DNA of 7,740 nucleotides from a virus (taxonomy: Duplodnaviria; Heunggongvirae; Uroviricota; Caudoviricetes): the IMG/VR virus record IMGVR_UViG_2875722834_000001, positions 1 through 7,740 of that record; one strand, given 5' to 3'. Positions 1-7,740 of this stretch are shown here, piece after piece. Position numbers and translations under genes: made by a program. How positions within the stretch are numbered: position 1 is the first letter of the stretch; every line of letters begins with the position of its first letter. The notes beneath the pieces are model-generated. The model did no database searches. It was not told the origin of the DNA and saw only the letters and a list, made by a program, of their open reading frames with translations.

Positions 1-170
1 ACCTGCACTCCAATTATTGACCAGTTCCTCACCGCGCCTCCCTCTCCGGCGGCGCGAATGAACATCTTATTGGCTATCACATCCGACACAAATGTTGCCA
101 TCCCATTGCTTAATCGAATAAAAATCAGGCTACATGGGTGCTAAATCTTTAACGATAACGCCATTGAGGC

Positions 171-200
171 TGGTCATGGCGCTCATAAATCTGGTATACT
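171..200 (+). promoter_or_regulatory. Candidate sigma70 promoter for ssrA: -35-like TGGTCA (171-176), 18-bp spacer, -10-like TATACT (195-200)
   Basis: Hexamers read directly from the sequence. TATACT ends 14 nt upstream of the mature tmRNA 5' end at 215, consistent with a short 5' leader removed by RNase P. The -35 match is weak. No ORF of 60 aa or more lies in 1-214, so this stretch looks intergenic. Confidence 0.4.
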
Positions 201-214
201 TACCTTTACACATT

Positions 215-577
215 GGGGCTGATTCTGGATTCGACGGGATTTGCGAAACCCAAGGTGCATGCCGAGGGGCGGTTGGCCTCGTAAAAAGCCGCAAAAAATA
301 GTCGCAAACGACGAAAACTACGCTTTAGCAGCTTAATAACCTGCTTAGAGCCCTCTCTCCCTAGCCTCCGCTCTTAGGACGGGGATCAAGAGAGGTCAAA
401 CCCAAAAGAGATCGCGTGGAAGCCCTGCCTGGGGTTGAAGCGTTAAAACTTAATCAGGCTAGTTTGTTAGTGGCGTGTCCGTCCGCAGCTGGCAAGCGAA
501 TGTAAAGACTGACTAAGCATGTAGTACCGAGGATGTAGGAATTTCGGACGCGGGTTCAACTCCCGCCAGCTCCACCA
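215..577 (+). ncRNA. ssrA: tmRNA (SsrA, transfer-messenger RNA), mature 363-nt form
   Basis: Starts GGGGCTGATTCTGGATTCGACGGG and ends GGTTCAACTCCCGCCAGCTCCACCA (tRNA-like acceptor/T-arm with CCA). The internal tag reading frame at 304-336, GCA AAC GAC GAA AAC TAC GCT TTA GCA GCT TAA, encodes ANDENYALAA-stop, the E. coli/Shigella-type tag. The whole gene matches my recollection of E. coli ssrA. Confidence 0.95.
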
Positions 578-585
578 AATAAATC

Positions 586-620
586 AAGGGGTTACGTAAA
601 AGCGTAGCCCCTTTTTCTTT
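586..620 (+). terminator. Intrinsic terminator downstream of ssrA
   Basis: Left arm AAGGGGTTACG (586-596) pairs with right arm CGTAGCCCCTT (603-613), with one G-U pair, around loop TAAAAG, followed by the T-tract TTTTTCTTT to 620. Seen directly in the sequence. Confidence 0.6.
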
Positions 621-635
621 GGTAGTGGCGGCAAA

Positions 636-674
636 ATGGCGACAGACTTTTGCGTCCATCTTGCCTGTCGCCAT
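636..674. repeat. Perfect 10-bp inverted repeat ATGGCGACAG (636-645) / CTGTCGCCAT (665-674) with a 19-bp spacer; the octamer CCATCTTG is also repeated directly (656-663 and 671-678)
   Basis: Read directly from the sequence. It lies between the ssrA terminator and the RBS (AAGAGG 689-694) of the 701-1183 gene. Possible operator, recombinase or IHF arm site, or RNA hairpin. Confidence 0.5.
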
Positions 675-700
675 CTTGAAATCATGCAAAGAGGTTTCAC

Positions 701-1183
701 ATGGAAGAACTTCACTTTGTTTACATCAATGCAAATGGTCGTATCGGAGTTCACTCAATACAGAGCATCAGTTATAGCGAAAATCATATACAGGGCATTT
801 GTAAGAACACCGATCGAATAAAAACCTTCCGAAAAGACCGCATTCTTAAACAGTACGATTCACCAGAACAAGCCATTCAGGAATGCGCGTCATTCCTCCC
901 CGAAAACTACTCACACCTCACTAAGCAGTCTGGTCCGAAAAAAAATACATTCGATGTGTGTTTCACCGGATTTAAGAAAGCAGATAAAGAAAGATTGGTT
1001 GATAAGGCGAATGAACAAGGATTAACGGTAAGAACCTCTGTAACCCAAAGCCTTCAGATGCTCTGTTGCGGTTACAATGCAGGCCCATCAAAAGTATCGG
1101 CAGCCAGGATGAAAGGCACAATCATCATAGATGAGCCTGGCTTTATACATTTTCTTGAAACGGGTGAGATCCCAGATGAATAA
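701..1183 (+). CDS. Hypothetical 160-aa cargo protein: N-terminal WYL-like domain fused to a C-terminal BRCT-like domain
   Basis: Strong RBS AAGAGG 6 nt upstream of the ATG at 701. The N-terminal half contains RIKTFRKDRI, resembling the R-x-F-R-x-D-R-I hallmark at the end of WYL domains. The C-terminal half (NTFDVCFTGF ... GLTVRTSVTQSLQMLCCGYNAGPSKVSAARMKGTIIIDEPGFIHFL) resembles the BRCT fold pattern of NAD-dependent DNA ligase (LigA) C-termini. The region is visibly AT-rich compared with the adjacent phage core. Domain calls are by eye and need HMM confirmation. Confidence 0.7.
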   Translation: MEELHFVYINANGRIGVHSIQSISYSENHIQGICKNTDRIKTFRKDRILKQYDSPEQAIQECASFLPENYSHLTKQSGPKKNTFDVCFTGFKKADKERLVDKANEQGLTVRTSVTQSLQMLCCGYNAGPSKVSAARMKGTIIIDEPGFIHFLETGEIPDE

Positions 1184-1211
1184 AAACCTGCCGTAGCAGG
1201 TTCTCTTTCTC
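1176..1211. terminator. Bidirectional intrinsic terminator between the convergent 701-1183 gene and ogr
   Basis: Perfect 7-bp stem AACCTGC (1185-1191) / GCAGGTT (1196-1202) around loop CGTA. On the minus strand the stem is followed by TTTTTATT; on the plus strand by CTCTTTCTC. Confidence 0.55.
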
Positions 1212-1428
1212 AAAAATTCATATGCCCCTGACCACCTGGCAATGGATGTGGAGGAGCAGTAGCAATCAGTGCGGGTGTCACAATAAACCGGACCACTGTT
1301 TCATGGGTAACAAAAGTGCTCCCGCAGTTAATATTTTGGCACTGGCAGTAACGCTCTTTGGTGCTTTCAGTTACTTGAAAACTGCTCCTTGTGTGTGCCG
1401 CATGACCACACTTTGGACAATTCATCAT
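1210..1428 (-). CDS. ogr: Ogr-type zinc-finger late-gene transcriptional activator (P2 Ogr / 186 B / P4 Delta family)
   Basis: The ORF 1210-1473 contains MMNCPKCGHAAHTRSSFQVTESTKERYCQCQNINCGSTFVTHE..., with the C-x2-C ... C-x4-C spacing and overall resemblance to P2 Ogr (about 72 aa). The upstream 16 codons of the six-frame ORF are probably not translated, so the start is set at the internal Met at 1428; the start is uncertain by one codon (1425 or 1428). Confidence 0.85.
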   Translation of the reverse strand: MMNCPKCGHAAHTRSSFQVTESTKERYCQCQNINCGSTFVTHETVVRFIVTPALIATAPPHPLPGGQGHMNF

Positions 1429-1496
1429 ATCCAGATCCCTACCTTTGCTATCAGAATCATTGTAATGATACACAAAATATCAACATTGAGAACACT

Positions 1497-2597
1497 TTAT
1501 TCCATTTCAAGATCATCAATCTTCACTTCGAGTTCAATACTGGTCGTAAAACCATTATCCGGGCTGACGGTATGAGTCAGAGTCGTAATGGTCCATTCCG
1601 CATCATCTATCGGTTGTTTAAAGCCACTAACTTTCACTGGCATTTCCGTGTAAAGATCTGCCCGCCCTTCCGCCAGTTGTAGCGAGAATGACGCAACGCC
1701 GCGTTGCAGGCGTTCCCACTGCATTTTCGCTGCCCGTTCAGCGTTGCTCCGGTTGGCATAAGTGCGATTAAGTACCAGCACGTTTTCATCCGTACCCACC
1801 AGGTAATCGCCCTGCTTCGCTTCCGGCTCTTTCTTCTGCTTCTTAGTTCTGCGCTTACGCTTCACCGTGGTACTTTCTTTCTTCGCAGGTTCGCGGGTAT
1901 GCAACCAGCTGGCAATTACGCCCGTGTAGGCTCCGCGATCTGCCAGGGTAAATCGGTGACTGTCGCCGTCCTTGCGTGTGATAGTGATCACTGGCAGAGG
2001 TTTACCAGTGGCGCTTTTGCCCTGCCCCTGCCGGATGAATAACAGATTGCCATTTTTCACCGACGCGATGGCACCGTACTGTCGCGCCAGCCGCATCAGA
2101 AAACTGCCGTCACTCTCATTAGTCTGGTCTATATGCTCCACGGGCTTATCCGACAGGTCTTTACCCAGTGCCATCTTCAGCTTGTGCCGCGCGGCTATTT
2201 CCTTCACCACTTCCCCGACGGTGGTCTTATGCCACGATTTTTCACGGCGGGTATTCAGCGTTTCCCGAAAATCAGCACTTCGCGCCCGAATAGTCAGGCG
2301 GTCCGGTGCGCCAGTGTGTTCAATCTCGTCCACTGTGAATGCCCCTTTCGGGAAAAGCGGCTGCCCCTTCCAGCCCAGCGCCAGCGTAATAACCGCACCA
2401 CGGCGCGGCAGCACGATTTTTCCGTCAGCGTCATCCAGCTCCAGATCAAGCTGGTCCGCTTCAAAGCCCCGGTTATCCGTCAGCGTCAAACTCATCAGGC
2501 GGTTATCCAGCACAGTGGTGATATCCCTGCCCTCAATACTGATGCTGAATGCGGGAGTTTTGTTGCCTTTGTTAAGCAGTTCAGAGCTGAAATTCAC
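1497..2597 (-). CDS. D: P2 gpD-like tail protein (late control D family), 366 aa
   Basis: Size and position match the P2/186 order T-U-D-ogr. Its start overlaps the stop of the upstream U gene by 4 bp (ATGA-type coupling). GC-rich codon usage typical of the phage core. The identity rests on synteny, not on a recalled gpD sequence. Confidence 0.85.
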   Translation of the reverse strand: MNFSSELLNKGNKTPAFSISIEGRDITTVLDNRLMSLTLTDNRGFEADQLDLELDDADGKIVLPRRGAVITLALGWKGQPLFPKGAFTVDEIEHTGAPDRLTIRARSADFRETLNTRREKSWHKTTVGEVVKEIAARHKLKMALGKDLSDKPVEHIDQTNESDGSFLMRLARQYGAIASVKNGNLLFIRQGQGKSATGKPLPVITITRKDGDSHRFTLADRGAYTGVIASWLHTREPAKKESTTVKRKRRTKKQKKEPEAKQGDYLVGTDENVLVLNRTYANRSNAERAAKMQWERLQRGVASFSLQLAEGRADLYTEMPVKVSGFKQPIDDAEWTITTLTHTVSPDNGFTTSIELEVKIDDLEME

Positions 2598-3079
2598 GAC
2601 AGCAGCCCTCCCACCGTTTTACTGATATCGCTTAAGGCAGACGTTGCCGTGTCCTGCAGATTATTCAGTTGCGCACTGAGATCACCGAACATATCGGACA
2701 GGGATTCATCCACTCGTTTGAGCGACAGGGTGAACTCAATCCGGCGCGGCATACCGTCGCGGAAAAACTCCGTTTTAGTCTGATTCAGTCCCTCAATCAC
2801 ATACATGCCGTAAATCGTGCCGCTGCCTTCAATCAGGGGCCATGCTTTCCCCTGTTCTGCCATCTGCTCCAGTGCCAGCAACGACAGCCTGCCGCCTGTT
2901 ATTTCCGGCATAAGAACACCGGAAAGCGTCAGCATGTCGTTTTCCGGTCCCAGAAACTGCGTGGACGGACGTCGGTTTACCCGACTGTTTGCCGCATGTC
3001 GCCAGCTGCGTTGATACTGCAGTTCCTGATACGGAACGGTGCGCAGCATAAACACGTACAATCCCAGCACCATCATCAT
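2594..3079 (-). CDS. U: P2 gpU-like tail protein, 161 aa
   Basis: About 160 aa, located between the tape-measure gene and D, with 4-bp overlaps at both ends. The start is one of three consecutive Met codons (MMM). Confidence 0.85.
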   Translation of the reverse strand: MMMVLGLYVFMLRTVPYQELQYQRSWRHAANSRVNRRPSTQFLGPENDMLTLSGVLMPEITGGRLSLLALEQMAEQGKAWPLIEGSGTIYGMYVIEGLNQTKTEFFRDGMPRRIEFTLSLKRVDESLSDMFGDLSAQLNNLQDTATSALSDISKTVGGLLS

Positions 3080-4476
3080 GCGTCGTATCCCCCCTGATCG
3101 CTGTAGTTACTCCTGGCTTTTGCCTTCAGCCTGCGTTCACGTTCATCAAGCTGGCGTGCCACCTCCCGCGCAATATCCTGCGCACTTTGTCCTGGCTGCG
3201 TCTGAATGATGATCTGCGTCGGTGCCTCAATCCGTTGAACGAGCGGCACAGTGGCTGCGCGACTCACAATTGCTTCTCCACCTTTCGCGGGAAGTGCCAA
3301 GGGGTGCAACGGTGGAAGCTCTGCTGGCGCGGCAGCAACGCCCATCATTCCGGCAACAACGGCAGCCAGTGCAGCTGTATTTCTCCGGCTGGTCACATTT
3401 GCCGGGCCGTTAACAATTTCCGGCCCGTTTTCACCGACGATGCCAAACTGCCCGCGCGGGATATACCCGCCGCTGTCATACATCCCCGCAAAGCCATATC
3501 CCCATGATGGAAAACCACCCGATGGCATCATCACTTTACCGTCTGCATTCACCGTCGCAGGTTGCTGACGCGTCACGCTTTCCGGCAGTTTTGCCTTTGC
3601 GGCCTCTTTACTGACAATGCCGAGCTTCTCCAGCAACCAGGAAACGCCGGATTTCAGGGAGTCCAGCGGATGCATGACCATATTCAGCCCTTCCGCCAGT
3701 GCCTCCCCGAATCGCCGCCCCATTGCCGCTGCGCTCTGCAGTTCGGCAGAGGTCGACTTAACGGGCGTCAGCAGATCAGTAAACCAGCCCCACAGCGCCT
3801 GCACTTTGTCGCCAATCCACTGGAACACGGGCTTAAGCGGTTCGAACGCTGCACTGATGGGACCTGCCGCCGCTTTGAATCCTTCCACCACGCCACCGAG
3901 AAATGCGGTGATGGGTTGCCAGTATTTCCAGACAACCAGCGCCACGCCCGCCAGTGCAGTAACCACAAGACCTATCGGACTGAGCAGAGCACCTAACAGA
4001 CCAGATATGGCATACAGGGCAACGCGCAGCATCGCCAGTGGACCAGATGCCAGTACTCGCAGCACCGTGCCTGCGGCGGCCAGTCCACCGCGCAGTACCG
4101 CCAGAGGATTCATAAACATCACAGCAACAGCACGTAAACCGGATACCGCACCTGCAGCAACACGCCCGATCTCTGCGGTTGCACTCATGACGTAATGTGG
4201 CAGTTTCTCTTTTGCCACCTCATTAATCGGTACACATGGCAGGCAGTGAATCTGAGCCAGAAAACCATCTACCAGCGTTGAATCTTCAGTCAGATCGGTA
4301 AGCAACCAGATTTCTGGTGCAGTTAATAAATGAGGTTGAGCTGGGTTCAGCTTGTTCCGCAGAATCTGCACATTCATGCCTGCACGTTCTGCCAGTTGCA
4401 CCAGGTTGTGGCGCAGTGCAAAAGCCCTACAGGCTTCATCGAAATGCGGATGTTTGGAAATCTTGTAATCAAACAT
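3076..4476 (-). CDS. In-frame chimeric ORF (466 aa): CII-like regulator N-terminus (about 100-120 aa) fused to the C-terminal part of a tail tape-measure protein (gpT-like); probable deletion remnant
   Basis: The N-terminus [45 protein letters not shown]...[25 protein letters not shown] matches what I recall of phage 186 CII. The rest is Ala/Gly/Val-rich with hydrophobic segments typical of tape-measure proteins and sits directly upstream of U and D. Good SD (AAGGGGGG) before the ATG at 4476. A full gpT in P2 is about 800 aa. Confidence 0.75.
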
Positions 4477-4509
4477 GGTGCCCCCCTTAGAAAGTTCCCA
4501 TAATTGAAC

Positions 4510-4752
4510 TTACTTACCAACAATGACTCGGAAGTTGGAATGACCGAGGGATTCACGGACCTGATCGGTTTTGTACATCAGATAACGCAGGCTTACGCGA
4601 CCTTTGTTTTTTTCTTTCTTGACCATGTACTTAGCAAGTTGACCATGGTGAATTTTTTGGTAAACAGAGCCGCGGGAAATACCCTCCCACTCTGCGAACT
4701 CTGCAGGCGTAGCCATCTCTTTTGGTACACGAATTGAAATATCAGTACTCAT
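4510..4752 (-). CDS. Small HTH DNA-binding protein in the Apl/Cox position (putative excisionase and switch regulator), 80 aa
   Basis: It is the first gene of the operon leading into the CII-like gene, divergent from the cI-int operon, as for 186 apl or P2 cox. The segment TPAEFAEWEGISRGSVYQKI looks like an excisionase-type helix-turn-helix. Assignment is mainly by synteny. Confidence 0.65.
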   Translation of the reverse strand: MSTDISIRVPKEMATPAEFAEWEGISRGSVYQKIHHGQLAKYMVKKEKNKGRVSLRYLMYKTDQVRESLGHSNFRVIVGK

Positions 4753-4873
4753 AGTGCAGTATCTCTTACTTTGTGTGCGTGTTAGTTCGTTTTAGCCCGT
4801 CTCTTAAACTCTCACATCAAGAGACATGAAGACATTACGATCTTGATTCAAGATTGTCAAATGGAGATTACCA
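4753..4873. promoter_or_regulatory. Lysis-lysogeny switch region between the apl-like gene and cI, with candidate promoters and operators
   Basis: On the minus strand there is a consensus -35 TTGACA (plus coordinates 4855-4860), a 17-bp spacer holding the perfect 15-bp palindrome ATCTTGATTCAAGAT (4840-4854), and a -10-like TAATGT (4832-4837). A 7-bp inverted repeat GTCTCTT (4799-4805) / AAGAGAC (4819-4825) and several TCTCTTA-like repeats (4761-4810) are also present. The cI RBS is GGAG at 4863-4866. The plus-strand cI promoter may lie within the start of the apl-like gene (TTGAAA at 4734-4739), as in the face-to-face promoters of 186 and P2. Confidence 0.55.
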
Positions 4874-5506
4874 ATGTTAAACATCAGAATGGGTTCCGAT
4901 ACGGGAGGTAAGGCAGCTATTGAAAGGCTGCTTGAGGCTTATGGATTCACAACTAAGCAGGCATTAAGCGAGCACCTGAATGTCTCAAAAAGCACTATGG
5001 CAAACAGAGTGTTACGTGACAGCTTTCCTGCTGACTGGATAATTCAGTGCGCACTAGAAACCGGTGTTTCGTTGCTTTGGTTAGCTACAGGACAGGGAAG
5101 CATGAAAGGAGGAGCTGAGCCTGAGAAAAGTTCTCATAATGAGAACAAACAAGCAATTAAACCGTTATCCAAACTCATAACTCCAGCTATTCCTAAAGGA
5201 ACCCTGGAGAATGGACAACTCAGTATTGATGAAGAGATTTTCCTAGACCACAGCATATTACCTGCAGATTATGAAGAATCGATGTTCTTAGAAACCCCTA
5301 CTGATTGTTATCTCATCGATAAATCAATTAAACAGGTCAGCAATGGATTCTGGCTTATCAATATTGATGGAATGATTATTGTTGCAAAAATCATGCGGAT
5401 TCCCGGCAATAAGATTGTAGTAAATCAAGATGAAGCGTCTTTCGAGTGCTCTACTGATGATGTGGAAGTTATTGGGCGTGCAGTCAAAGTAATAAAGAGT
5501 ATCTAA
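4874..5506 (+). CDS. cI: Phage 186 CI-like immunity repressor, 210 aa
   Basis: The motifs LEAYGF, CALETGVSLLWLATGQG, GFWLINIDG, RIPG, FEC and IGRAVKV align with what I recall of 186 CI (CEAYGF, CALETGANLQWLLTGEG, GLWLVDIEG, KLPG, FEC, LGRVVGV). It lies immediately upstream of int on the same strand, as in 186. Confidence 0.85.
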   Translation: MLNIRMGSDTGGKAAIERLLEAYGFTTKQALSEHLNVSKSTMANRVLRDSFPADWIIQCALETGVSLLWLATGQGSMKGGAEPEKSSHNENKQAIKPLSKLITPAIPKGTLENGQLSIDEEIFLDHSILPADYEESMFLETPTDCYLIDKSIKQVSNGFWLINIDGMIIVAKIMRIPGNKIVVNQDEASFECSTDDVEVIGRAVKVIKSI

Positions 5507-5508
5507 AC

Positions 5509-6525
5509 ATGACTGTCAGAAAACAGCCAAACGGTAAATGGTTGTGCGAGTGCTATCCCAATGGACGCAATGGCAAGCGCGTGCGTAAGCAATTTGCTAC
5601 GAAAGGCGAAGCCATTGCTTTTGAAAGCTTCACAATGGAAGAAGTGAACAAAAAACCATGGCTGGGGGAAAAGGAAGATCGGCGACACCTATCAGAATTA
5701 ATTGAGCAGTGGTATTCCCTGTATGGTCAAACACTCGCAGACCCCAAGCGCCTCATGGCGAAACTTAGAATTATCTGTAATGGTCTAGGCGATCCCATCG
5801 CCTCAGAACTAACAGCCGGTGACTTTACGAAATACCGCGAAGCACGGTTAAAAGGTGAAGTACGAAATGAAGATGGCACGCTTATGTCGCCCGTTAAGCC
5901 CCGCACGGTAAACCTTGAACAGCGCAATCTATCATCGGTGTTCGGTACATTAAAAAAACTAGGACACTGGTCAGCACCAAACCCGCTGGCAGGACTTCCG
6001 ACCTTCAAAATTACCGAAGGTGAGCTGGCTTTTCTTTCCGTGGACGAAATCAAGCGCCTGTTGGCTGCATGTGCTGAATCTCAAAGCCCGAGCCTACTAA
6101 TGATTGCAAAAATATGCTTAGCTACCGGCGCACGGTGGAGTGAAGCCGAAAACCTTCAGGGCCACCAAATATCGAAATACCGAATTACTTATACAAAGAC
6201 AAAGGGCAAGAAAAACAGAACAGTACCAATATCTCAAGATCTGTATCACGAACTCCCCAAAAACAGAGGGAAGTTATTCACGCCATGCAGAAAATCTTTT
6301 GAGCGTGCAGTAAAAAGAGCAGGTATTGACTTGCCAGAGGGCCAGTGCACGCATGTATTGCGCCATACATTCGCTAGTCACTTTATGATGAATGGCGGAA
6401 ATATTCTTGTATTGAGAGATATTTTAGGGCACTCAGATATAAAAATGACAATGGTCTATGCCCATTTCGCACCAGAACATCTTGAAGATGCTGTTACTAA
6501 AAACCCCTTATTTAACTTAAAGTGA
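5509..6525 (+). CDS. int: Tyrosine site-specific integrase, P2/186 family, 338 aa
   Basis: The C-terminal catalytic region HVLRHTFASHFMMNGGNILVLRDILGHSDIKMTMVYAHF carries the R-H-x-x-R ... Y signature of tyrosine recombinases; an upstream conserved Arg lies in LATGARWSEA. It starts 2 nt after the cI stop, suggesting translational coupling. Confidence 0.95.
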   Translation: MTVRKQPNGKWLCECYPNGRNGKRVRKQFATKGEAIAFESFTMEEVNKKPWLGEKEDRRHLSELIEQWYSLYGQTLADPKRLMAKLRIICNGLGDPIASELTAGDFTKYREARLKGEVRNEDGTLMSPVKPRTVNLEQRNLSSVFGTLKKLGHWSAPNPLAGLPTFKITEGELAFLSVDEIKRLLAACAESQSPSLLMIAKICLATGARWSEAENLQGHQISKYRITYTKTKGKKNRTVPISQDLYHELPKNRGKLFTPCRKSFERAVKRAGIDLPEGQCTHVLRHTFASHFMMNGGNILVLRDILGHSDIKMTMVYAHFAPEHLEDAVTKNPLFNLK

Positions 6526-6534
6526 TAAATAAAA

Positions 6535-7740
6535 ATGCATATTCAACAAGAACTCGATGAAGAACTTAATAATCTTTTTGACACTATTAGAAAAAAATCA
6601 AGTATTCGACCACCAATTGAGATTGAAAAAAACCTTACTTTGATAGATGACTTCGCTCTAAAATGCAGTAAATTCCGGGGTTGTTTAGTAGATTACATCC
6701 AGGAAAATGATAACAGGTTAAGTTTACGCTTGCGCAATAGACTTAGAGCTGTAGATATCATGCAGAAAGAAATCGTCTCGTGTTTAGAGTGTTTTTTATC
6801 AGGGGATATTAAGTCGGCATATGACTCATTTGAAAGTATGCTAGAGCCACGAACTATATCTCGTCATATTGAAAATATATGCATACCTCTTTCTGACTTA
6901 TGTAATGAAGATAAACCATTATTCCGCGTTAGAAAATCTGATACGCCACTTACATCAAGAAGAGATATGTTTCATATTCCGTTCAGTCAGCGTCACTTTG
7001 TTAGAGCACAGAGATTTTCAGTTGCTGGTCTACCCTGTTTATATTTAGGAACATCTCTTTATATATGCTGGAGAGAAATGGATAAGCCAGATTTTGATAA
7101 GCTATATATATCTGCCTACAAGATCGATAAAAATAATGACTCAAAGGTACTAAATATAGGACCTGATTTTTTATATAAACAGAGATCTATATTAGAGTCA
7201 AAAAGAAAGAACAAATATGATTTCAATACCAAACTCTCATATTTAGCACTTTGGCCTTTGATAATTGCATGCAATTATTTAAAAAAATATGACAATGCTT
7301 CCTTTGTACAAGAATATATTATCCCCAATCTTTTGATGCAATGGATCAGTCGGAACAGCAATGAGAATGTTGTTGGTATAGCCTACCGCTCAACAAAATT
7401 ACCTGCTAATGCCTTAGGTAGCAGAGGAATAAATGTGGTACTTCCTCCAAAAGTGCGTTACGAGGAGATGGCCAATAATGAATTTTGTCCAAATCTAGCG
7501 AAAATTTTCAAATTCACATTGCCTGTATCTTGGCAGGTCCTAAAAACAGTTGAGTACGTGCCTGAATCAGTTGCACAATCCGATCGAGAGAATCTCAGCA
7601 GAAGGCTACGAAGAAGAAAAAATCGTGAGCTAACAGGAAGCATAGATGATGAAATTTTGAACATCTATAATTTAACTGACTTTTATAAACTCGAAACTTG
7701 TATGGATGAAATTCAAGTATATGCCCATATTAAACCATGA
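6535..7740 (+). CDS. Hypothetical 401-aa cargo protein with a central RES-domain signature (putative NAD+-targeting toxin or defence effector)
   Basis: RFSVAGLPCLYLGTSLYICWRE gives Arg160-x9-Tyr170-x10-Glu181, and GIAYRSTKLPANALGSRGINVVL gives Ser286, matching the conserved Arg/Glu/Ser and their spacing in RES-domain toxins. There are long N- and C-terminal extensions, including the basic stretch RRLRRRKNR. The region is very AT-rich. The ATG is 9 nt after the int stop with no recognisable SD. The stop codon is at the last three bases of the window. Confidence 0.75.
   Translation: MHIQQELDEELNNLFDTIRKKSSIRPPIEIEKNLTLIDDFALKCSKFRGCLVDYIQENDNRLSLRLRNRLRAVDIMQKEIVSCLECFLSGDIKSAYDSFESMLEPRTISRHIENICIPLSDLCNEDKPLFRVRKSDTPLTSRRDMFHIPFSQRHFVRAQRFSVAGLPCLYLGTSLYICWREMDKPDFDKLYISAYKIDKNNDSKVLNIGPDFLYKQRSILESKRKNKYDFNTKLSYLALWPLIIACNYLKKYDNASFVQEYIIPNLLMQWISRNSNENVVGIAYRSTKLPANALGSRGINVVLPPKVRYEEMANNEFCPNLAKIFKFTLPVSWQVLKTVEYVPESVAQSDRENLSRRLRRRKNRELTGSIDDEILNIYNLTDFYKLETCMDEIQVYAHIKP

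Follow-up and report, generated by a model that had tools for sequence, protein, structure and literature searches.

ORF160, a Stand-Alone WYL-BRCT Protein of P2-Like Prophages with a Possible Role in Recognizing DNA Structures

The stretch of DNA analyzed here (the window, 7,740 nucleotides [nt] comprising positions 1 to 7,740 of IMG/VR virus record IMGVR_UViG_2875722834_000001) is matched at 100% identity by the chromosome of Escherichia coli HH107. It begins in smpB-ssrA, and downstream lies a P2/186-like (Peduoviridae) prophage from which most of the genome is gone. Within this stripped remnant, a small open reading frame (ORF), ORF160 (701 to 1183, plus strand, ATG start), remains intact and encodes a 160-amino-acid protein that joins a WYL-type barrel to a BRCT domain. 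ORF160 is an accessory gene of the temperate-phage lysogeny/attachment module and is co-oriented with cI and int.

On its upstream side, ORF160 is flanked by the transfer-messenger RNA (tmRNA) gene ssrA (215 to 577, plus strand), which was identified by ARAGORN (tag peptide ANDENYALAA) and by RefSeq annotation and whose 3' end is the phage attachment target. An exact 38-nt direct repeat at 533 to 570 represents the attL copy of the att core and the prophage boundary. This core, the 3' end of ssrA, recurs 7,327 bp downstream, just past the window end (6533 to 6570 and 13860 to 13897 in locus L001), and it is invariant among ssrA-integrating relatives and the attP sites of free phages. Since the core is repeated in this way, the prophage begins immediately beyond position 570, with ORF160 as the first gene, inside its ssrA-proximal end. 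Positions 571 to 613 (plus strand) carry a phage-supplied replacement of the ssrA 3' end and an intrinsic terminator detected by a terminator scan (hairpin at 586 to 613, 12-bp stem, T-tract); the free phages Cartapus and MLG42 have the same 571-to-613 sequence downstream of the core, in attP. With this phage copy of the ssrA 3' end (CCACCA) and the strong terminator, integration regenerates an intact tmRNA gene. On the other side of ORF160 lies its convergent neighbor ogr, the late-gene activator (1210 to 1428, minus strand; Pfam Ogr_Delta, 8.9e-21, and existing annotation), which forms the late-gene end of the prophage. The placement of ORF160 between ssrA and ogr, proposed in an earlier note made from the sequence alone, was thus borne out by ARAGORN, the Ogr_Delta match, and the att repeat.

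The rest of the remnant continues on the minus strand with gpD (1497 to 2597), gpU (2594 to 3079), and a 466-amino-acid ORF (3076 to 4476) that combines the N terminus of a phage regulator of the CII family with the C-terminal third of the tape-measure protein of the tail and that RefSeq lists as two pseudogene fragments. This fusion marks an internal deletion of most of the prophage, with ~7.3 kb left between the att repeats. An Apl/Cox-like gene (4510 to 4752, minus strand) is followed on the plus strand by a 186-type cI gene (4874 to 5506), int (5509 to 6525), and an ORF encoding 401 amino acids that lies between int and attR (6535 to 7740).

Several features support ORF160 as a real gene. 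In addition to the ATG start, its homologs keep the N terminus MEE(L/M)HFVY, and this conservation fixes the start codon. A ribosome-binding site, AAAGAGG (688 to 694, plus strand), was read from the sequence, with the GAGG Shine-Dalgarno element at 691 to 694, 6 nt before the ATG. A scan of the plus strand for terminators located a hairpin at 1185 to 1202, after the ORF160 stop codon. Read on the opposite strand, this hairpin is followed by the T-tract TTTTTATT, so it serves the convergent ogr gene as well and is common to the two genes. The earlier note had also taken AT-richness as a sign that ORF160 is a moron. This claim did not hold, since the GC content of ORF160 (41.6%) matches those of cI (40.9%), apl (44.4%), int (45.3%), and ogr (46.6%), with the late genes at 54 to 59%. 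AT-richness as a mark of foreign origin was therefore rejected, given that ORF160 resembles the neighboring regulatory genes. The compositional outlier is the 401-amino-acid ORF, with a GC content of 34.6% and a third-position GC content (GC3) of 28%.

The region between the terminator and ORF160 belongs to the P' arm of attP. It contains three TGGCGRCA repeats, two in direct orientation with 11-bp spacing (626 to 633 and 637 to 644) and one inverted (666 to 673), and the array stops 28 nt before the ORF160 start codon. Across the window, TGGCGRCA occurs 5 times, relative to 0.61 matches expected. The direct pair and the inverted third copy make up an upstream block, GTGGCGGCAAAATGGCG(A/G)CAG, which is invariant across genera from Escherichia to Plesiomonas. 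This block was considered as a promoter or operator of ORF160, but a matching tandem pair borders the core on the opposite arm, beside attR (L001 13747 to 13765; also in Cartapus), and this reading was rejected in favor of integrase arm-type sites. As judged from their sequence and arrangement, the TGGCGRCA repeats are probably such sites. Binding of Int at the P' array could influence the transcription of ORF160.

The N-terminal half of the ORF160 protein (residues 1 to 54; 701 to 862, plus strand) is a WYL domain, a five-strand, Sm-like beta-barrel that begins at residue 3 and carries a KTFRKDRI signature. It was modeled by AlphaFold 2 (AF2) with high confidence (predicted local distance difference test [pLDDT] of 91 for the AF2 models, with a mean of 91.4 for ORF160). 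Residues 55 to 82 (863 to 946, plus strand) form two short helices, according to the AF2 secondary structure, and a variable linker, where pLDDT falls to as low as 68 at residues 71 to 80 and where length varies in the homolog alignment. The canonical WYL signature, (R/K)xFRxDRI on the last strands, is present as K41-T-F-R-K-D-R-I48, and nowhere else in the N-terminal domain is conservation as high: T42 is invariant, F43 is kept in 44/45 sequences, R44 in 40/45, D46 in 39/45, and R47 in 38/45. KTFRKDRI registers with RNFRLDRV and RTFRLSRI of PafBC, although a profile of the N-terminal domain alone gave only nonsignificant E values of 0.6 to 1 against the PDB and was used solely for this motif registration.

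Profile matches place the fold more firmly at the level of the family. The Pfam gathering thresholds are 21.8 bits for WYL and 21.3 bits for BRCT. The WYL model matched 8 of the 48 aligned homologs at E values of ≤0.1 (best, 1.5e-5), and distant relatives exceeded the gathering score over the corresponding region (P0143, 28.5 bits; P0262, 28.6; P0246, 27.8; P0196, 27.6). PADLOC WYL models also matched distant relatives (3.7e-9). We consider the WYL identity solid at the family level. The WYL ligand is single-stranded DNA (ssDNA) in CapW, DriD, and PafBC (PMC11662680, PMC10853764, PMC11804915), and CapW contacts ssDNA through S144, R164, R168, and R184 (PMC11662680). The WYL half of ORF160 is basic (pI 8.9), which is compatible with a nucleic-acid ligand but not diagnostic of one.

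The C-terminal half (residues 83 to 160 plus the stop codon; 947 to 1183, plus strand) is an RFC1/LigA-class BRCT domain that ends in a conserved ETGEIP tail. The AF2 model contains a canonical BRCT at residues 83 to 154, with the four-strand parallel sheet and three flanking helices of this fold. The BRCT model matched 41 of the 48 homologs (best, 1.2e-7), and the BRCT of the module scores above threshold in relatives such as P0246 (31.6 bits) and P0185 (28.2 bits). When the family profile was compared with solved structures, it matched the BRCTs of RFC1 (4e-6) and LigA (3e-5), and a Foldseek search matched RFC bound to nicked or gapped DNA. F88-T89-G90-F91, L99, L121, G124, and K131 do not vary in any of 45 sequences; K93, K96 (K or R in 45/45), and N126-A-G-P129 are nearly invariant. 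The residues of the phosphate-binding pocket, S/T-G on the beta1-alpha1 loop and a lysine at the start of alpha2, are thus present. Profile alignment places FTG at F165-T166-G167 of yeast Rfc1 and AGPxK at A205-G-P-K208-K209, such that T89-G90 aligns to T166-G167 and K131 aligns to K209, the neighbor of K208. Rfc1 K208 lines the cavity for the recessed 5' end (PMC9293004), and this source cites tight binding of the isolated human RFC1 BRCT to DNA with a recessed 5' phosphate. Given the invariance of T89, G90, and K131 and their alignment to Rfc1, the classic BRCT phosphate pocket is under strong selection. Like the WYL identity, the BRCT identity is solid at the family level.

Neither a helix-turn-helix (HTH) nor a catalytic domain was detected in ORF160 in searches of Pfam, NCBIfam, and PADLOC or in the AF2 model. 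The domain reading of the earlier note, a WYL-like domain with an RIKTFRKDRI motif joined to a BRCT-like domain resembling that of NAD-dependent ligases, with no HTH and no catalytic domain, is therefore upheld: the motif is present, the WYL fold is supported at the family level, and profile, structure, and motif matches all identify the BRCT as LigA/RFC1 type.

The same BRCT accounts for the functional names that the protein has acquired. Over its full length (residues 1 to 159), ORF160 matches phrog_2561 (2.2e-77), and the entries named "DNA ligase" (PHROG 2561 and RefSeq phage records) and "BRCT domain-containing protein" (the name that NCBI already gives to some copies) belong to the same family; annotated copies that are identical or nearly so exist in E. 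coli genomes as well as in phages 500465-1 and Cartapus. The functional names lack support. The ligase model TIGR00575 matches only at positions 549 to 650 of 652, its BRCT tail, at 19.6 bits relative to a cutoff of 444, and ORF160, with only 160 residues, does not have the adenylation KxDG motif, OB fold, zinc finger, or HhH of LigA. The label "putative exonuclease" (DEDDh; Cartapus) was rejected on the same basis, as NF004719 matches only at 229 to 307 of 331, also a BRCT tail, at 26 bits versus 389. Membership in PADLOC PDC-S48 was likewise rejected, since only positions 335 to 406 of 411 of that model (a BRCT) were matched, in the query and in fused relatives alike. The combination of WYL and BRCT was catalogued among WYL fusions in 2014 (PMC4012209).

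A profile search of 1.84 billion cluster representatives identified 2,655 proteins at E values of ≤1e-3, of which 894 scored ≤1e-10 and 208 scored ≤1e-30. Family members are mostly stand-alone proteins of ~160 amino acids, and amino-acid identity across genera is ~70%. Some members depart from this plan (P0107, P0114, P0115, P0125, P0143, and P0185), with N-terminal transmembrane segments in some and tandem WYL-BRCT modules in others; the transmembrane segments suggest membrane-anchored versions of the same DNA-recognition unit. Among 50,697 phage records, 28 have the gene, and all are P2-like or related. The carriers comprise Escherichia phages 500465-1 and Cartapus, Yersinia phage MLG42, Vibrio phage PV94, Burkholderia phages, Mannheimia phage PHL101 and its relatives, and one Pseudomonas phage.

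Within E. coli, ORF160 is found in 171 to 187 of 5,426 complete genomes (~3%), whereas gpD occurs at ≥94% identity in ~1,300 genomes. The gene is thus missing from sister prophages with near-identical gpD tail genes, and its status as cargo, as the earlier note had it, is sustained in the sense that it is accessory. Of three marks of a moron, absence from close relatives was found and a distinct base composition was not; as for a promoter and terminator of its own, a terminator hairpin is present, but the scan upstream on the plus strand, where the att arm repeats lie, found no sigma-70 consensus promoter. In ~1,100 E. coli genomes, gpD is 94 to 98% identical and homology stops exactly at the gpD stop codon (window position 1497); at this point the tail module meets alternative ogr/att/int modules in a sharp mosaic joint. 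In one sister lineage, ogr lies directly at the prophage end, with nothing between it and the host gene.

The neighborhoods of the homologs show how the gene is organized in other temperate phages. In about half of 48 species-level genome loci, either cI is immediately upstream or ogr/D is convergent downstream. The order cI, WYL-BRCT gene, variable genes, int, all on one strand, is found in PHL101, Vibrio PV94, Xenorhabdus, Pectobacterium, and Serratia, and in PHL101 the WYL-BRCT gene begins 4 nt past the cI stop codon. In Pseudomonas loci, the upstream repressor is instead an HTH+Peptidase_S24 protein. Among the ssrA-integrating Enterobacterales, the free-phage order is cI, int, a variable position (the 401-amino-acid gene in Cartapus; nothing in MLG42), attP, and the WYL-BRCT gene, which converges on ogr and D. 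Integration parts the gene from the co-oriented cI and int genes and places it ~125 nt downstream of the host tmRNA gene, an arrangement shared by Escherichia, Erwinia, Klebsiella, Plesiomonas, Tatumella, and Citrobacter.

Outside prophages, the gene lies between AbiGi and AbiTii in L021 and beside an McrB_N-HNH protein in L039, and one nonprophage setting is an island with integrase, AlpA, Mrr, and methylase genes. These neighborhoods agree with the earlier note's expectation that homologs track with mobile elements or defense loci, in that prophage lysogeny modules as well as Abi, restriction, and integron-integrase neighbors were all found. In two uncultured gammaproteobacterial genomes, an integron-type integrase (Phage_int_SAM_4 plus Phage_integrase) is encoded ~0.5 kb from the WYL-BRCT gene (L018 6521 to 7507, minus strand; L025 6382 to 7428, plus strand), and the gene may be an integron cassette there. 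The interval between cI and int (K139-like phages) and that between int and att (P2) are published defense hotspots (PMC9122126, PMC13586616).

The slot between the WYL-BRCT gene and int encodes a TIR-like protein in a Pectobacterium prophage (L139 7512 to 8447; PADLOC TIR effector, 1.1e-9) and a DUF3800/PDC-M04A protein in PHL101 (L003 6318 to 7127; 1.3e-32). In marine Gammaproteobacteria, a conserved domain of ~200 amino acids with the motifs GW.FAV, LDIK, and WTQG (domain X) is fused to either side of WYL-BRCT (P0123, P0130, P0159, P0179, and P0182), and in L018 it is encoded by an adjacent gene (8502 to 9098). Domain X had no match in Pfam or PADLOC, and its sole PDB match was a weak one to an S-layer protein (E = 0.019). 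The 401-amino-acid ORF of the window lies in the int-att hotspot of P2-like phages and is probably an uncharacterized defense or toxin gene. It had no sequence match in Pfam, PADLOC, or the PDB, and the Cartapus label "putative RES protein" was not confirmed. Given that this gene is present in only 11 of the 5,426 E. coli genomes (LF82 included), lacks database matches, and is unrelated to domain X, we rejected it as an obligate partner or RES toxin.

Taken together, these observations lead us to propose, tentatively and at somewhat less than an even chance, that ORF160 is a lysogen-expressed, noncatalytic protein that recognizes ssDNA along with 5'-phosphorylated end, nick, or gap structures and confers a protective benefit. 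The ligand assignments rest on family resemblance. ORF160 would be made in the lysogen, where its WYL barrel would bind ssDNA and its BRCT would engage a 5'-phosphorylated end, nick, or gap. Structures of this kind arise on damaged DNA and on foreign DNA that is entering the cell or replicating, and ORF160 might either occupy them or report them to other factors. The outcome would be exclusion or defense-type protection for the lysogen, as for other genes downstream of phage repressors.

A number of observations weigh against this proposal. ORF160 itself had no match to Pfam WYL (PF13280), and its match to Pfam BRCT (PF00533) reached 19.5 bits (E = 1.1e-3), under the 21.3-bit cutoff. The W-Y-L triad reads N28-H29-I30 in ORF160, with H or Y at the middle position across the family, and the flanking arginines with which CapW and BrxR contact ssDNA are not conserved, being E27 and Q31 instead; PafBC likewise lacks arginines flanking the triad, yet it binds ssDNA. 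The BRCT half is net acidic (pI 5.3), relative to the basic RFC1 BRCT, and so a phosphoprotein or another partner could be bound rather than DNA. With regard to expression, a scan for sigma-70 consensus promoters found none upstream of ORF160 on the plus strand, and the strong phage-supplied terminator stands between ssrA and the gene, which together make the expression of ORF160 in its present arrangement uncertain. Transcription here could come from leak-through at the ssrA terminator, from read-through from int in the circular form, or from a weak promoter overlapping the arm sites. Of the earlier note's portrayal of a well-expressed-looking gene with a strong ribosome-binding site and its own terminator, the Shine-Dalgarno element and the hairpin stand, the latter as one held in common with ogr, whereas strong expression is unproven, no upstream promoter having been found. 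Furthermore, no constant partner or effector was found among the loci, as neighbors vary and many of the phages have none. Literature searches (WYL plus BRCT, BRCT plus anti-phage or prophage, and P2 hotspots) found no functional study of the family, the 2014 catalogue being the only mention.

We weighed this proposal against four other readings of the same data. The earlier note had itself suggested a regulator of a distant effector, a sensor of DNA damage or nicks, or an anti-defense decoy. ORF160 might help the phage's own DNA metabolism, either by guarding the phage's nicks, gaps, or cohesive ends from nucleases or by recruiting host ligase or repair factors during circularization, replication, or integration and excision. 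Its BRCT is closest to those of LigA and RFC1, which act at nicks and gaps, the gene adjoins int and attP, and curators have repeatedly chosen "DNA ligase" or "exonuclease" labels based on BRCT similarity. Nevertheless, most P2-like phages lack the gene, including sisters with near-identical tail genes, and the life cycle therefore does not require it. The gene shares its orientation with cI and int, not with the early replication operon, and it also occurs outside phages, by integron-type integrases, Abi genes, and restriction genes. In addition, recombination by tyrosine integrases leaves no 5'-phosphate nicks. We consider this helper function unlikely. The characterized WYL proteins sense damage-derived ssDNA (PMC11662680, PMC11804915, PMC10853764), and ORF160 could similarly be a DNA damage sensor that adjusts the SOS response or the induction of the prophage, with ssDNA bound on the WYL barrel and the BRCT acting on the repressor or competing with RecFOR/RecA at the 5' junctions of gaps. 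The gene adjoins that of the maintenance repressor, at a distance of 4 nt in PHL101, which would suit such a role. Repressors of the 186 type are not cleavable by RecA, and an antirepressor is required for their inactivation. The adjacent repressors are, however, of at least three unrelated types, among them the self-cleaving HTH+Peptidase_S24 proteins, for which no antirepressor is needed. This diversity, set beside the near-invariant BRCT surface, makes a specific contact with the repressor unlikely, and the gene is also found in nonprophage contexts. Accordingly, we view a damage sensor as somewhat more doubtful than a helper of phage DNA metabolism.

ORF160 could also be one half of a two-part system, serving as the sensor or adaptor for a separate effector such as the 401-amino-acid, RES-annotated gene product, the TIR-like proteins, or the fused domain X. 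The fusions to domain X in marine Gammaproteobacteria and the adjacent domain X gene of L018 are consistent with this possibility, as are the variable defense-like genes that follow in the cI-int slot (TIR-like in L139 and PDC-M04A in PHL101) and the position of the 401-amino-acid gene as the neighbor across attP in both Cartapus and the window. On the other hand, there is no constant partner: the 401-amino-acid gene is far rarer in E. coli than ORF160 (11 genomes versus 171 to 187), MLG42, Serratia, and Xenorhabdus have no obvious effector, and domain X is absent from all P2-like loci and is unrelated to the 401-amino-acid protein. Such a two-part system is, in our estimation, quite improbable, ranking behind the damage sensor. 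Least probable of the four, and decidedly doubtful, is an anti-defense decoy that sequesters ssDNA, DNA ends, or a nucleotide signal from host sensors such as WYL-regulated systems, RecBCD, or retrons. A small, nonenzymatic, phage-encoded protein whose domains mimic a host sensor module (WYL) and a ligase module (BRCT) would fit this description. Anti-defense genes are typically early lytic, though, while the WYL-BRCT gene is co-oriented and often operonic with cI, an orientation that disfavors an early lytic role. The gene also resides in defense-type neighborhoods of bacterial chromosomes (AbiGi/AbiTii and McrB_N-HNH), and it has been kept intact in a defective prophage that is no longer able to infect.

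Returning to our proposal of a lysogen-expressed, DNA-structure-recognizing protein, a bolder version would make WYL-BRCT a new class of stand-alone, nonenzymatic prophage immunity or surveillance factor that reads ssDNA beside a 5'-phosphate end on DNA that is invading or replicating. Such a factor might block directly, by occluding ligation, priming, or repair, or it might serve as a portable sensor for a hotspot effector, and in the ssrA-integrating lineage, integration would rewire its transcription from downstream of int to downstream of the tmRNA gene. We give this version a small chance, well below that of the general proposal. A view is emerging in which many bacterial defense regulators use a WYL domain as their ssDNA-sensing input, always paired with a DNA-binding HTH as the output. 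In the present family, whose genes belong to the lysogeny module of many temperate phages, the partner of the WYL input is a DNA-end-type BRCT, and both an HTH and an enzyme are missing. If ORF160 does read junctions of ssDNA and 5' phosphates, it would illustrate how a prophage with no catalytic effector can keep watch on DNA that is foreign or damaged, or block it, and a function would be at hand for a family, now mislabeled as ligase or exonuclease, that numbers several hundred sequence clusters or more. The gene is small and easily tested, and Cartapus, MLG42, and PHL101 are cultured carriers.

Among known systems, CapW, BrxR, PafBC, and DriD resemble ORF160 at the input end, the WYL barrel. 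They have a winged HTH (wHTH) and a WCX domain, whereas ORF160 has neither, carries a BRCT after the barrel, and is half their size. CapW additionally has the DNA-contacting arginines flanking its triad that ORF160, with its N-H-I triad, does not. In contrast to these wHTH-WYL-WCX regulators, nothing indicates that ORF160 regulates transcription. At the other end of the protein, the BRCTs of RFC1 (p140) and LigA are the best sequence and structure matches of the C-terminal half; RFC1 and LigA, however, contain clamp-loader or ligase catalytic modules, while ORF160 is stand-alone, accessory, and acidic, and its DNA binding is proposed by analogy. Lacking wHTH, WCX, clamp-loader, and ligase modules, ORF160 as a whole belongs to neither the WYL regulator family nor the RFC1/LigA family.

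The closest parallel in genomic position is with the cargo genes of phage lysogeny modules. The lambda rexAB genes are lysogen-expressed exclusion genes located downstream of the phage repressor gene. ORF160 is related neither in sequence nor in fold to Rex or to other known exclusion proteins, and in the E. coli lineage, unlike the case for rexAB-type cargo, attP lies between its gene and cI-int, and once the phage has integrated, the entire prophage separates them. Across the family, however, the WYL-BRCT gene follows the same genomic logic as rexAB and the K139-like cI-int hotspot cargo, usually lying on the cI strand and directly downstream of the repressor gene, in many cases just a few nucleotides away from it.

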